64,000 nt of DNA from Chloroflexota bacterium (GCA_040752025.1 JBFMFR010000027.1:6082-70081); one strand, 5' to 3'. Counted from the stretch's first letter, positions 27,461-38,735 are shown. The notes: generated by a model not told the origin, from the letters alone. Translations and numbers: made by a program.

Positions 27461-27539
27461 TTAAAATGCAAACGTCCGAGTGAGGGGGGCACCCGGACGT
27501 TTGCGCCTTTATATTACCTCAGGTGTGGAAATTTTGCAA
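27461..27539 (-). ncRNA. Candidate ~45-nt hairpin sRNA (copy 1) with promoter TTGCAA-N17-TAATAT
   Basis: Promoter 27539-27511; RNA from ~27504: GCAAACGU-CCGGGUG-CCCCCCU-CACUCGG-ACGUUUGC-AUUUU. Confidence 0.6.
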
Positions 27540-27586
27540 GGGTGATTCGATTAATTTTCGATGAAATGCCTAATCCCAGAGCCTGC

Positions 27587-28597
27587 TCAGGCGCGCAATT
27601 CGATGATATCCCCGTCTTGCAAGACGTAATCGCGCTGCACCATTTGCCCATCGAAGGCGGCGCTGCCCCACACGCGCGCCGACTTCAGGTTGTTGTAAAA
27701 ATCACGGTGGACTTTGGCCGCCAGATCGATGACCGTGCAGCCGCGCTTGAGCACAAAAGGGCGCGCCAGGTCGGGCTCCTGACCTGGCGGGCGGGCATAC
27801 ACGCGCACCACATCCAGGGCCTCAAAAACCCGCCGCTTGAACTCATCAAAATTGCGCCCGGTGAGCACTGAGATGGGCAGCATCGGGCAGGGTACGTCGC
27901 CAGGCGTTTCAGAGACCAGCAGCTCGCATAAGACCTCGAAATCTTCGTACAGGCGTTGGTCATCGCACTTGTTGGCCAATACCAACAGGGGCTTGAAGAC
28001 AAAACGCGGCAGGTCAGCGAACTGCTCCCGGCGTTGTACCGGCGCCAGGCGATGCTCGTACAGCAAGTTCAAAGCGTCTTCGAGCTGCTGCAAGGGATCA
28101 TCTTGCAGATCGACCATCAGCAGGATCAGGTCACAGCGGCGCAGCAGATCGAACAGGCCCGGGTCGACAAAACCAGCCGGATCCAGGGGCGGCGTATCGA
28201 CAAGCTGGACCTGAACGTTCTCCACCAGCAGCATGCCCGGCGTGGGTTTCCAGGTGGTGAACGGGGCTGCGGAGACTTCGGGTTCGGCGTTGGTCAGGGC
28301 GCGCACCAGGGCTGACTTGCCCACGTTGGTGGCCCCGACCAGCACCGCCTGCCCGGCGCCCTCTTTATCGATCTGGAAAGTCGAAGCGTGCCCACCGGTT
28401 TTCTTGCGGGCCTGCTGGGCATCGGCTTTGAGCCTGGAAAGCTGGCGGCGCAGGTCGGCGCGCAGCTTATCGGTGCCCTTGTGCTTGGGCACCGTGCTGA
28501 TCAATTCCTCCAGAGCCGCGGCCTTCTCGGCCGGACTCTCTGCCTGGCGGAAGCGCTTATCGGCTTCGAAGTAATCGGGCGGCAGGTTGGTAGGCAT
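27587..28597 (-). CDS. DRG/OBG-family GTPase with TGS domain
   Basis: 'PKHKGT', 'VGATNVGKS', 'PFTT', 'DTPP', 'NKCD', TGS end 'LQDGDIIEL'. Confidence 0.9.
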   Translation of the reverse strand: MPTNLPPDYFEADKRFRQAESPAEKAAALEELISTVPKHKGTDKLRADLRRQLSRLKADAQQARKKTGGHASTFQIDKEGAGQAVLVGATNVGKSALVRALTNAEPEVSAAPFTTWKPTPGMLLVENVQVQLVDTPPLDPAGFVDPGLFDLLRRCDLILLMVDLQDDPLQQLEDALNLLYEHRLAPVQRREQFADLPRFVFKPLLVLANKCDDQRLYEDFEVLCELLVSETPGDVPCPMLPISVLTGRNFDEFKRRVFEALDVVRVYARPPGQEPDLARPFVLKRGCTVIDLAAKVHRDFYNNLKSARVWGSAAFDGQMVQRDYVLQDGDIIELRA

Positions 28598-28663
28598 GCG
28601 TTCTTACTCCCAAGAGGGATTATACCCTGAAGGGATTCTGAACCAAAATACTTGAGACGAAAG

Positions 28664-29545
28664 CTATAGCAAGTTGAAGATATGGATTGACTGGTCCTTC
28701 TCGGTACAGTGTTTGGATTGTTCGCCAGGTTTACGTTTATCTGAAACAACCACAATCTGAGTCGGAGTGATCCAGTTCACCCCCTCAACGTTACAGTACA
28801 GGATATTGCCATCCGGGTCCCGGGGGAATTGATAAACCCGGCCATTGTCCACCCATTCCCAGCGATCCTCGCACAGTTGACCAACCCACAGCGCCGAGGT
28901 CATCTGCGAAACAACCGCCAAGCGATGGTTGTCAGCGTCCAGGCAGGCATAATCCTCGAATGCGACCGACTCGGGCAGCTTGAGCGTACCGCGATGCTCC
29001 CATTGGGTGTCACTGCGCTGCAACAGTTGGATGCGCCCACCGCCAGGTTTACGGCCCTCTTTACCGGCGCGGCACTTGTTGCTTTCGCACAACCCAAGCA
29101 GATAATCTTCACCGCCATGCCGAATGTAAGCGAGCCCCTCCATGCCTTTGTTCAAACCCTGCAAGGGAAAATCCACCCAGGCATTGCCCAAATAGCGAAA
29201 GTCTTCGGTGTATTCCTCGATGTTGGGTTTGTACGTATTCTCATCAAAGATCAGGGCTTCCAAGATTACGAGAAAGTGTTTGCTGGTTTGGTGATAAGTG
29301 ATGTCTTCGAAGCCAGTCGACTCACCACGCTGGCGTATCAGTGTATTGGCTGGATGGCCGGGCGCCAAGGATGCATCCAGCCGGGCGATGTGCGGAGAAT
29401 TGTCGAAGATCACGTAGAAACGCCCATCCTTGAGGCACACGCCGCTGGCTTCCATACGGTCATCGACGCTTTTACTGGGCAGCAGGGCATGAATCTTGCA
29501 TTCCTGCACCAATTGAAGGGTGGGATAAGATTGGATTTCAGACAT
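28664..29545 (-). CDS. Hypothetical beta-propeller protein
   Basis: Repeated E-G/D-hydrophobic blades (EASGV, EDITY, EGLAY, EGVNW). Confidence 0.65.
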   Translation of the reverse strand: MSEIQSYPTLQLVQECKIHALLPSKSVDDRMEASGVCLKDGRFYVIFDNSPHIARLDASLAPGHPANTLIRQRGESTGFEDITYHQTSKHFLVILEALIFDENTYKPNIEEYTEDFRYLGNAWVDFPLQGLNKGMEGLAYIRHGGEDYLLGLCESNKCRAGKEGRKPGGGRIQLLQRSDTQWEHRGTLKLPESVAFEDYACLDADNHRLAVVSQMTSALWVGQLCEDRWEWVDNGRVYQFPRDPDGNILYCNVEGVNWITPTQIVVVSDKRKPGEQSKHCTEKDQSIHIFNLL

Positions 29546-36507: not shown

Positions 36508-36627
36508 AAACACTCCTTGTGTGAGAGGTAAGTACATTCGCCAGCCCAGCAGCCAGGGCCAGGCGTCTATTCCTATTATACCCGCGCGGGTGCAGCGTGC
36601 GCGCCTGCGCCAGTCCTAAGTTTCTTC

Positions 36628-38475
36628 TCAGGCTACCTTGGCCAGCTTGGCCAGGCGGCCGCGCTCGTGCGTGGTGAGGACGCGCTTGCGGATGCGGTAA
36701 GCCAGCGGGGTGACTTCGAGGAGCTCGTCGTCGGCCAGGTATTCGATGGCCTCGTCCAGGCTCATCTGGCGCGGCGGCGTCAGGCGGATTTCCATCTCGC
36801 CGCGGGCGGCGCGCACGTTGGTGAGGTGCTTCTTCTTACAGACGTTGACGGTCAGGTCACCGGGGCGCTGGTGCTCGCCCACGACCATGCCTTCGTAAAC
36901 TTCCAGGCCCGGCTCGCAGAACAACATGCCGCGCTCTTCGGCGTTCTTCAAGCCGTAGGAAGTGGTGACGCCCGGTTCCCAGGCCACCAGCGAGCCGCTG
37001 GAGCGTTCCAGCATGGTCCCGGCCCAGGGCAAATAGCCGTGGAAGAGGGTGTGCAGGACGCCGGCGCCGCGCGTGGCGGTCAGGAACTGGTAGCGGAAGC
37101 CCAGCAGGCCGCGGGTGGGCACCAGGTATTTCAGGCGCACGCGGTTATCGCCGCTGTCCTGCATATCCATCATCTGGCCGCGACGAGCGCCGAGCATCTC
37201 GACCACCACGCCCACGGTATCGGCGCTGGTATCGATGTGCACTTCTTCGAAAGGCTCGAGGGTCTCGCCGCCAGCGCCGTGGCGCAGGATCACTTCCGGG
37301 CGCGAGACCTGGAACTCGTAGCCTTCGCGGCGCATGGTCTCGATCAGGATCGCCAGGTGCAGCTCGCCGCGCCCGGAGACCAGGAAGGTGTCCGGGCTGC
37401 CGGTCTCGGCTACACGCAAGGCAACGTTGGAGCGCAGCTCGTCGAACAGGCGCTCGCGCAGCTTGCGCGAGGTGCTCCAGCGGCCTTCACGCCCGGAAAA
37501 GGGCGAAGTGTTGACGCCGAAGGTCATGCGCACGGTGGGCTCTTCGACGCGGATGGGCGGCAAGGCGTGCGGGTCTTGTGGGTCGGCCAGGGTCTCGCCG
37601 ATGGCGATGCCCTCCAGCCCGGCCAGGGCCACGATCTCACCGGCCTGGGCGGCTTCGATCTCGATGCGCTTCAAGCCCTGGTGCACGTACAGGTAGCGGG
37701 CGCGCTCCGGCAGGACCTCGCCCGCCACGGTCAGGCGCGCCAGCGGCTGGCCGATCTGCATGCGCCCGGCGAAGATGCGCCCTACGGCGGTCACGCCGCG
37801 GTAATCGTCGTAGCCCAGGGTGGTGACCAGCATCTGCAAGGGCGCGTCGGGGTCGACGCGCGGCGCGGGGATGCGGCGCAGGATGGCTTCGAAGAGCGGC
37901 TGCAAGTCCGGGCCCAATTCGGGCGCCAGCCCGGCCTGGGCGGTGACGGCGTTGGCGTAGATCACGGGGAAATCGGCCTGCTCGTCGCTGGCGCCCAGCT
38001 CGATGAACAGGTCGAAGGTCTGGTTGAGCACGCGCTCCGTATCGGCGTCCTTGCGGTCGACCTTGTTGATCACCACGATGGCGCGGTGGCCGATCTCCAG
38101 GGCTTTCTTGAGCACGAAGCGCGTCTGCGGCATGGGGCCTTCGGCGGCGTCCACCAGGAGCAGGACGCCATCCACCATGTTCATCACGCGCTCCACCTCG
38201 CCGCCAAAATCGGCGTGGCCGGGGGTGTCGACGATGTTGATCTTGACGTTCTGTTCCGCAGCGGCATCCCAGATTTCGATGGCGGTGTTCTTGGCCAGGA
38301 TGGTGATGCCGCGCTCACGCTCCAGGTCGTTGGAATCCATGATACGCTCCGCCACCTGCTGGTTGGCGCGGAAGACGCGCGCCTGGCGCAGCAAGCCATC
38401 CACCAGGGTGGTCTTGCCGTGGTCGACGTGAGCGATAATGGCGATGTTACGAAGATCGGTTCTTTCTACGAGCAT
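36628..38475 (-). CDS. typA: Translational GTPase TypA/BipA
   Basis: '[12 protein letters not shown]', 'RGITILAKN', 'GRGELHL.IL.E.MRREG', '[13 protein letters not shown]'. Confidence 0.97.
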
Positions 38476-38657
38476 AAATCTTTCCTTTGTTACGAACCAG
38501 CAAAGACCCCGACCACTGCGGGCCGGGGCCGATAAGTACGAAAGGAGATTGTATCAGAAGGTATCGGGATTGAGAAGAGGTGAGATTCCGCCTCTTCCAG
38601 ATAGCGTTTATTAGACCCGGCTCAGGCGCAGCCAGCACCCTACCTGGTCCCCCCAAC

Positions 38658-38735
38658 AAAAAAGCGGCCTCCCGAGTGAGGGGGGCACCCGGGAAGCCGC
38701 AACCAAATTCTACTAAATCTACATCCAAAAGTCAA
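38658..38735 (-). ncRNA. Candidate ~45-nt hairpin sRNA (copy 2) with promoter TTGACT-N17-TAGAAT
   Basis: Promoter 38735-38707; RNA from ~38700: GCGGCUUC-CCGGGUG-CCCCCCU-CACUCGG-GAGGCCGC-UUUUUU. Confidence 0.65.

Follow-up and report, generated by a model that had tools for sequence, protein, structure and literature searches.

A 64,000-nucleotide (nt) stretch of DNA from a Chloroflexota bacterium (GCA_040752025.1, JBFMFR010000027.1:6082-70081; hereafter referred to as the window, with positions counted from its first letter) carries two copies of a short hairpin, each preceded by a promoter of the sigma-70 type and followed by a short run of T residues. Anaerobic digesters, sediments and wastewater sludge harbour abundant Anaerolineales, an order for which the literature that we searched describes no regulatory RNA. 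Here we report a computational analysis of the two hairpin units, which predicts that they are copies of a conserved, multi-copy RNA gene of Anaerolineales that is also carried by some of their phages.

Two hairpin units in the window

The two units lie on the minus strand, and their parts are as follows.

27511–27539, minus strand: promoter of copy 1, TTGCAA (27539–27534), 17-nt spacer, TAATAT (27516–27511), read from the sequence
27468–27504, minus strand: hairpin of copy 1, 15-base pair (bp) stem with the loop CCCCCCU (27490–27484 are the closing G and the C-run), from the fold; covariance model match of 68.9 bits
27461–27467, minus strand: tail of copy 1, AUUUUAA, likely 3′ end region, from the sequence; the scanner calls no terminator
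38707–38735, minus strand: promoter of copy 2, TTGACT, 17-nt spacer, TAGAAT, scoring 10/12 in the consensus scanner
38664–38700, minus strand: hairpin of copy 2, 15-bp stem (one U·G) with the loop CCCCCCU, from the fold; terminator-like by the scanner; covariance model match of 68.2 bits
38658–38663, minus strand: tail of copy 2, six U residues, from the sequence and the scanner

Both copies share the 21-mer CCGGGTGCCCCCCTCACTCGG, at 27476–27496 (minus strand) and 38672–38692 (minus strand). The window contains no third match at up to three mismatches, no match was found in 100 shuffled windows, and none is expected by chance. The 8-nt arms on either side of the 21-mer differ between the two copies, and each pair of arms is self-complementary, with one U·G pair in copy 2. 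Both copies fold into a 15-bp stem capped by the 7-nt loop CCCCCCU, with a minimum free energy (MFE) of −26.1 kcal/mol (z −5.2) for copy 1 and −30.2 kcal/mol (z −2.3) for copy 2, and neither the MFE nor the centroid fold pairs the loop. The first G of the stem is the seventh base past the −10 box in each copy. The promoter of copy 1 scores 8/12, which is below the threshold of the consensus scanner, so that it was not called; its position agrees with the profile of the family described below. These observations bear out what the original prediction had reported for this locus, namely the repeated 21-mer at two positions on the minus strand, the differing 8-bp flanking stems that nevertheless pair and the two promoters at a fixed spacing. 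Its description of a U-run after each hairpin stands for copy 2, with U6, and falls short for copy 1, in which the tail has four U residues and no terminator is called.

The original prediction had also placed both copies beside GTPase genes, and domain matches identify both of these neighbours.

27587–28597, minus strand: GTPase with MMR_HSR1 and TGS domains, upstream of copy 1, from a domain match
36628–38475, minus strand: typA/bipA, downstream of copy 2, with the Pfam domains GTP_EFTU and BipA_C
38548–38576, minus strand: separate promoter-like site located past copy 2 and ahead of typA, TTCTCA, 17-nt spacer, TACAAT with TG, from the scanner

Because typA has this promoter-like site of its own, it need not rely on the promoter of copy 2. 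An open reading frame (ORF) of 1,108 residues (30956–34282, minus strand) is located between the two copies, and a tRNA-Lys gene (anticodon CTT; 29668–29743, plus strand) is the sole Rfam or ARAGORN match in the window.

A multi-copy family within Anaerolineales

The source genome (6.8 Mb in 116 contigs, 95.8% complete, 8.7% contamination) contains seven copies of the hairpin unit. The 21-mer is exact in five of them, carries one change in a sixth and two pair-keeping changes in the seventh, and a reversed control pattern had no matches in the genome. Promoter, hairpin and tail are arranged alike in all seven copies, and the promoter spacers and lower stems differ. All 4,904 promoter-like sites of the genome were scanned for hairpins that start 4–9 nt past the −10 box and pair perfectly over at least 11 bp, and 22 sites were retained; seven of these are the present family, which is the only multi-copy family among them.

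A covariance model (R1) built from the seven copies matched 37 of 41 relatives, among them 23/24 of the same family and 13/16 from other families of the order. In a larger sample from the same order, the model matched 118 of 151 genomes, 99 of 116 high-quality genomes and 15 of 18 families; the three families without a match were f3 (0/1), f13 (0/4) and f17 (0/11). In a class-wide sample of 151 genomes, scored under stricter filters, the only matches were the source genome and three more genomes of the same order, and the 147 genomes that represent the other orders gave none. Re-searching five genomes from the match-less families with laxer filters yielded two matches, one an ordinary terminator and the other the longer-looped f3 hairpin described below. 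The covariance-model search of Chloroflexota genomes, proposed earlier as a check, thus finds a family that is widespread in one order and has no matches among the genomes sampled outside it.

The exact 17-nt core was found in at least 120 records in a scan with one genome per species. Among the 80 core records listed, 76 are titled Anaerolineales, Anaerolineaceae, Chloroflexota/Chloroflexi or a member genus; the genera include Leptolinea, Bellilinea, Longilinea, Pelolinea, Ornatilinea, Thermanaerothrix, Brevefilum and Villigracilis, and the cultured Leptolinea tardivitalis YMTK-2 and Thermanaerothrix solaris are named. The four off-taxon records among those listed (two Rhodobacter capsulatus, one Acidimicrobiia and one Capnocytophaga) lack the stem. 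Genomes with the family carry one to seven copies, and several genomes have tandem pairs or triplets 107–160 nt apart, each unit with its own promoter.

Two hairpins in related genomes resemble the family to a lesser degree. The f3 genome has, at approximately 1500–1545 (plus strand) of L197 (G026 contig C604), a G+C-rich hairpin with a 14-nt loop that holds CCCCCCUCAC, followed by UUUUUAA (E 0.57); its kinship with the family is uncertain. At 101–145 (plus strand) of L176 (G022 contig C13), a hairpin with a GGGUG/CACCC apex stem and a similar lower stem has the loop UUACCAU and no clear promoter, and may be a diverged paralogue or a chance match.

An invariant apex on a covarying stem

In the seven copies of the source genome, all 105 of the 105 stem cells of the alignment are paired, with changes on both sides in 7 of the 15 base pairs. 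Among 67 distinct sequences, aligned by fitting to the covariance model, which favours the structure somewhat, 99.7% of the cells are paired and compensatory changes occur in 11 of the 15 pairs (189 cells). None of 500 shuffles reached the observed pairing values, and sliding the partner strand by one to three columns reduced pairing to 30–50%.

This variation is concentrated in one part of the stem. The lower 10 of the 15 pairs covary, whereas the apex is almost invariant: 17 apex positions, including five base pairs, hardly vary over 15 families. The four top pairs (G–C, G–C, U–A and G–C) are invariant in the 67 sequences, and the fifth is G–C or G·U. In weaker matches to the model, the apex stem may be CUG/CAG below an unchanged loop, the loop may have five or seven C residues, or a U–A pair may be replaced by U·G. 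The C-run is always retained, also in these rare variants, which points to the loop as the functional part, and the C-run loop is present in matches down to approximately 32 bits.

The stems of 160 copies contain 220 G·U and 8 A·C pairs. Since G·U so far exceeds A·C, pairing works only on the strand that carries the C-rich loop, and the fold is under selection as RNA. The working part of the molecule is predicted to be the apex, the loop CCCCCCU on a GGGUG/CAC(C/U)C stem, and the lower stem changes freely by compensation.

Promoter, predicted 3′ end and independence from neighbouring genes

A promoter of the form TTGNNN-16 to 18-TANNNT lies upstream of 114 of 160 copies; the antisense side of 5 of 160 copies has it too, as do 63 of 2,000 random 70-mers from the same loci. 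In 108 of the 114 promoter-bearing copies, the −10 box ends 15–18 nt before the core, which corresponds to 5–8 nt before the stem. Accordingly, the position profile of 166 copies displays TTG, an extended −10 region, the stem and UUU(U/A)(A/U). A run of at least three T residues follows the stem in 151 of these 166 copies, UUU occupies the tail positions in 76–95% of them, and the T-run is asymmetric, favouring the strand of the C-rich loop.

The genes around 161 copies, as judged from crude ORF calls, occur in all four orientations relative to the hairpin (upstream, downstream: ++ 48, +− 39, −− 37, −+ 23; a neighbour is missing in 14). The downstream gene is on the opposite strand in 84 copies and co-directional in 71, and, because it lies on the other strand in those 84, the element cannot generally be a 5′ leader. 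The upstream gene is co-directional in 89 copies, in which it is mostly at least 35 nt away, leaving room for a promoter. Of 84 convergent downstream genes, again on crude ORF calls, 32 have their stop codon no more than 25 nt from the hairpin.

No neighbour is conserved around the 161 copies: the biggest cluster of flanking proteins has 19 of 308 members. The top clusters, labelled by eye, are aminotransferase-like (19/308), SdhB (9), FtsK (6), RecN (5) and Obg (4). Neither TypA nor the MMR_HSR1 and TGS GTPase recurs beside other copies, so a syntenic link with GTPases was discarded, and the suspicion voiced at the outset that the adjacency in the window is coincidental proved sound.

Because the neighbours occur in all four orientations and none is conserved, the hairpin unit is best read as an autonomous gene, neither a leader nor an ordinary terminator. 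The original prediction had named promoterless homologues lying only after stop codons as the finding that would speak against it; instead, most copies have a promoter, and no more than 89 of 161 follow a co-directional gene. Its proposal of a multicopy family in which the hairpin and a short U-run would make up nearly the whole RNA is supported by the seven copies in the source genome, the matches in 118 of 151 genomes, the 114 promoters among 160 copies, the compensatory changes in 11 of 15 pairs, the varied orientation of the neighbours and the lack of an Rfam match.

Several other assignments were considered and rejected. A small ORF (GUG CCC CCC UCA and onwards) would run into the variable stem, with no conserved stop codon and no ribosome-binding site. 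A boxA or nut-like role of the ...UUUAA tail does not fit, as only UUU(U/A)(A/U) is conserved and the orientation to neighbouring genes is random. An intrinsic terminator of the upstream gene is at odds with the unit's own promoter, with the 89 of 161 co-directional upstream genes and with copy 1, which fails to show at least five U residues in eight. A repeat of the repetitive extragenic palindrome (REP) or miniature inverted-repeat transposable element (MITE) type was set aside given one to seven copies per genome, conservation of the functional positions only, and the ratio of 220 G·U to 8 A·C.

Copies on phage contigs

The exact core is also present on 69 viral contigs of IMG/VR. Among these viral copies, the stem extends for at least 8 bp beyond the core in 56, a strict promoter precedes 55, and 30 match the covariance model at E ≤ 1e-5. 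One cluster of 16 flanking genes encodes the large terminase (terL), five downstream genes encode portal proteins, and two clusters of small ORFs, with 11 members each, lie between the large terminase gene and the RNA. The terminase and portal flanks therefore mark the RNA unit as a self-contained cassette within the packaging and head module, oriented in the same direction. The element is a mobile one, shared by host chromosomes and phages.

The spacer of the phage promoter contains TAGAAC-N4-GTTCTA with up to two mismatches in 28 of 56 copies. With up to one mismatch, GAAC-N4-GTTC occurs in 26 of 52 viral promoters, compared with 0 of 167 chromosomal copies and 30 of 3,000 random windows. 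The lexA promoter of the source genome (L270, G000 contig C31) consists of TTGACA, an exact GAAC-N4-GTTC in the spacer and TATGAT, and lies approximately 93 nt before the match to the LexA DNA-binding domain. We take GAAC-N4-GTTC to be the SOS box bound by LexA, as in Gram-positive bacteria, and at lexA it is probably the SOS box of the source organism. Since the same box stands in the lexA promoter, the phage box can be read as a putative LexA site; the phage copy would thus probably be switched on by DNA damage, and the host copies look constitutive. Exact AGAAC-N4-GTTCT occurs eight times in the source genome, in several cases beside promoter-like hexamers.

In nine contigs of the boxed group, a conserved leader ends in A followed by G7–G9, 6–14 nt before an ORF of 158–159 residues, and two of the three such ORFs tested match the small-terminase family phrog_83 (terS). 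Scored with a 9-nt loop probe, the start region of terS came out best of all start regions in three of the three scored loci (−17.4 to −18.9 kcal/mol, against medians of approximately −5), terS being unscored in the other five of eight loci owing to the ORF filter or the edge of the locus. The terS leader is accordingly a candidate target that represents one evolutionary instance, and is a lead rather than a result. The phage sites that rank second, GUGAGGGG where an ORF of approximately 157 residues begins before terL, were rejected, as they are non-contiguous or lie within coding sequence.

The A+G7–9 motif lies 4–19 nt from the contig end in four viral contigs (L201, L229, L230 and L256), with a tract of 7, 8 or 9 residues. 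The contig end at this motif may be a physical genome end (cos region).

Proposed action and alternative explanations

We propose that each locus would be a self-contained gene for an RNA of approximately 42–45 nt. A sigma-70-type promoter would start transcription at the first base of the hairpin, the short U-run past the stem would end the transcript, and the paired ends may make the RNA stable. The RNA would act in trans without Hfq, ProQ or CsrA, its exposed C-run pairing with G-runs (A+G6 or longer) in the leaders or ribosome-binding sites of messenger RNAs (mRNAs). Transcription as an RNA of approximately 42 nt, the position of its 3′ end, its action in trans and its target class are all predictions from sequence. 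Two generic features of a trans-acting small RNA are present at this level, in the form of an own promoter and 3′ end (114/160 and 151/166 copies) and a conserved unpaired loop, and a six-frame profile search of the 95.8%-complete source genome found no Hfq, ProQ or CsrA. We place moderate confidence in a chaperone-independent, trans-acting RNA that would read G-runs with its loop by analogy with the small RNA RepG.

Searches for host partners of the loop gave no coherent set. GAGGGGGG occurs 102 times in the source genome and 11 times outside long ORFs, and 4 of these 11 are the RNA genes or a partial copy read backwards. The longest non-self complementarity to the 17-nt apex in this genome is 14 nt, antisense to a long ORF. 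The transfer RNAs of the source genome contain no G6 run, and pairing with ribosomal RNA (rRNA) does not exceed 7–9 nt with the 16S of two relatives and the 23S of one, the rRNA of the source genome being unassembled.

A number of observations weigh against the proposed RNA and its loop–target pairing. The apex stem shows the same degree of conservation as the loop, which a simple 7-nt seed would not need, and a protein or a conserved machine as the partner fits this equally well. Host genes with GAGGGGGG or AGGGGGG near their start codons form no coherent set, eight genes with G6 at the position of the ribosome-binding site have unrelated functions (Pfam AllG, YbbR, PhzF, RibD_C and TraG-like, with three unmatched), and no recurrent G-run gene was found in 0.97 Mb of related loci. 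The terS leader is a candidate target in one phage lineage only, the G-run genes of other lineages being other than terS. The U-run is short, reading UUUAA in 105 of 166 copies, and copy 1 is not called as a terminator, so that read-through may be common.

The conservation of the apex stem is the ground for a different explanation, in which the invariant apex docks a conserved protein (for example, a poly(C)-binding KH-type protein, a nuclease or a translation factor) that the RNA titrates or guides. It accommodates the 17 near-constant apex positions, with their five pairs, over 15 families above a covarying lower stem, as well as the lack of a coherent set of complementary mRNA sites; the hairpin gene is also carried by phages, which carry other host housekeeping RNAs. 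However, no conserved neighbouring protein gene suggests a partner, and in the variant L187 the top pair of the stem is swapped in a compensatory manner with the loop unchanged, as would be expected if the loop is the part that is read. The complementarity of only 7–9 nt to the 16S and 23S of a relative bears on pairing alone. We consider such a protein-binding RNA rather unlikely, if a serious competitor. A cis-acting role, as a leader, attenuator or bidirectional terminator or insulator of the adjacent genes with the RNA as a by-product, would draw on the convergent stop codons within 25 nt of the hairpin (32/84), the 71 of 161 co-directional downstream genes, the read-through made plausible by the short U-run and the location of the phage unit within a late operon in the same direction. 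It has to contend with the 84 of 161 copies that lack a co-directional downstream gene, with the promoter-like site that typA has for itself and with the T-run, which is asymmetric towards the C-loop strand. Moreover, a terminator or insulator needs neither an invariant loop nor its own positioned promoter, and in several genomes two or three units stand in tandem, each with its own promoter; punctuation of this kind is therefore improbable.

An element that acts as DNA, such as an operator palindrome, a REP- or MITE-like repeat, or a recombination or attachment site, seems very improbable to us. A repeated palindrome directly after a promoter does recall some operators, and other, single-copy palindromes occupy this position too; in addition, a 1,096-nt duplication in contig C42 starts inside the loop, and the hairpin is found on phage contigs. 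By contrast, 220 G·U against 8 A·C indicate pairing on one strand, as RNA, and the arms vary yet stay paired, which is the opposite of an operator. Copies within the same genome differ in spacer and lower stem and so are not recent products of transposition, and the phage copies lie between the terL and portal genes, not beside an integrase.

Relation to known RNA families

At the gathering threshold, Rfam 15 matched the tRNA-Lys alone in the whole window, and at E ≤ 10 no match overlapped the hairpins in the seven loci of the source genome. An Rfam match, which had been named beforehand as something that could remove novelty, was thus not found for the hairpins in Rfam 15. Within the main text of articles, a search for small RNAs of Anaerolineae, Anaerolineales, Chloroflexi and Anaerolinea thermophila gave no description of the hairpin, and a paper on new bacterial non-coding RNAs makes no mention of these taxa. 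The family therefore appears to be undescribed so far.

The proposed action most resembles that of RepG of Helicobacter pylori, in which, according to the report on this RNA, the C/U-rich loop of the terminator hairpin pairs with a homopolymeric G-repeat in an mRNA leader, and the second stem-loop, which carries the terminator loop, is enough on its own to repress the G-repeat target (PMC8295292). The two RNAs would have in common the C-rich loop of a terminal hairpin as the pairing part, by analogy for the present RNA, and one phage lineage has before terS a G7–G9 tract of variable length that recalls the G-repeat. Unlike the present RNA, RepG has an extra 5′ stem-loop and a single gene copy, and it comes from another phylum; there is no relation between the two in sequence or in Rfam. 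The 6C RNA of Actinobacteria (6C/B11 in Mycobacterium tuberculosis) is reported to have C-rich loops with at least six C residues, to act without a chaperone and to be conserved across a large taxon (PMC6486639). The present RNA is like it in its loop of six C residues, in its conservation across a large taxon and, as proposed, in its action without RNA chaperones. However, 6C RNA has two hairpins with C-rich loops and is single-copy per genome, whereas the present RNA is one hairpin of approximately 42 nt, multi-copy and restricted to Anaerolineales. Membership of the 6C family was thus rejected on account of the single hairpin, the flanks unconserved beyond the U-run and the lack of an Rfam match at E ≤ 10.

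RsaE/RoxS, sX13 and the cuckoo/CcsR RNAs, small RNAs of the anti-Shine–Dalgarno type, likewise show C-rich unpaired motifs in hairpin loops, and some of them, such as the cuckoo RNAs, are multi-copy or tandem. They are longer and have several motifs, their models did not match the present family, and the present RNA has no conserved adjacent protein gene. Like an ordinary intrinsic terminator, the unit has a G+C-rich stem followed by U residues, and copy 2 is called as one; unlike such a terminator, it has its own promoter at a constant spacing and a loop that is invariant, its sequence is conserved across the order, its U-tract is weak in most copies, and it is placed without regard to upstream stop codons. 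A moron is a cassette of promoter, gene and terminator inserted among phage genes. The phage unit resembles morons and prophage small RNAs as a cassette between the terL and portal genes in the same direction, and differs from them in that the 42-nt RNA it carries also belongs to the core chromosomal genes of the host order and in that its promoter has a LexA-type box. New in these comparisons would be a riboregulator with a C-rich loop that consists of one hairpin only and that phages carry too, with a seed acting on ribosome-binding sites as a proposal.

Implications

If expressed as predicted, the hairpin would be the first well-supported small RNA gene for Anaerolineales; its structure is clean, its promoter is defined and its loop is an obvious candidate for the functional part. 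At approximately 42 nt, with promoter, seed and terminator centred on one hairpin, it would approach the lower size limit for an autonomous RNA gene. The covariance model R1 already annotates the family across the order, and the phage copies behind a LexA-type box offer an entry to RNA-based interplay between phage and host in a little-known phylum.

A more far-reaching scheme, which we put forward as a long shot, is that the RNA would be a reader of G-tracts common to the hosts, with one to seven constitutive copies, and to temperate phages, with an SOS-switched copy in the packaging module, and would time or block the packaging of phage DNA through the length-variable A+G7–9 tract that one lineage has in the terS leader at its genome end. 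Were this so, the control of packaging could be self-control by the phage or an immunity of the host or prophage against related phages. It would then amount to an RNA-only layer of phage–host conflict across a whole order, exerted by one of the smallest autonomous bacterial riboregulators.

Further observations around the copies

In the source genome, an S-adenosylmethionine riboswitch (RF00162, 85 bits) lies at 1257–1366 (minus strand) of L003 (G000 contig C75), divergent from one copy of the hairpin RNA. Another copy neighbours a CRISPR array at 1–1371 of L007 (G000 contig C42), which has approximately 20 repeats of 33 nt ending in ATTGAAAC, with a spacing of 66–70 nt and a degenerate last repeat, and which stops approximately 120 nt before the hairpin RNA copy. 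The repeat contains a G6 run; its pairing with the RNA extends over only 9 bp including two wobbles, and a link was judged to be coincidental.

The same locus has a tandem duplication of 1,096 nt (1498–1797 and 2594–2893; 99% identity over 300 nt) that starts within the hairpin loop. As a result, the 3′ half of the RNA gene, lacking a promoter, stands before the second copy of a gene for a 240-residue protein, which looks secreted by eye. Elsewhere in this genome, two contig ends, in C82 (approximately 75–87) and C106 (approximately 140853–140865), carry short tandem repeats of the form ...aaattcgt(c/g)caattcgtaaaattcgtg..., as read from the context lines alone.

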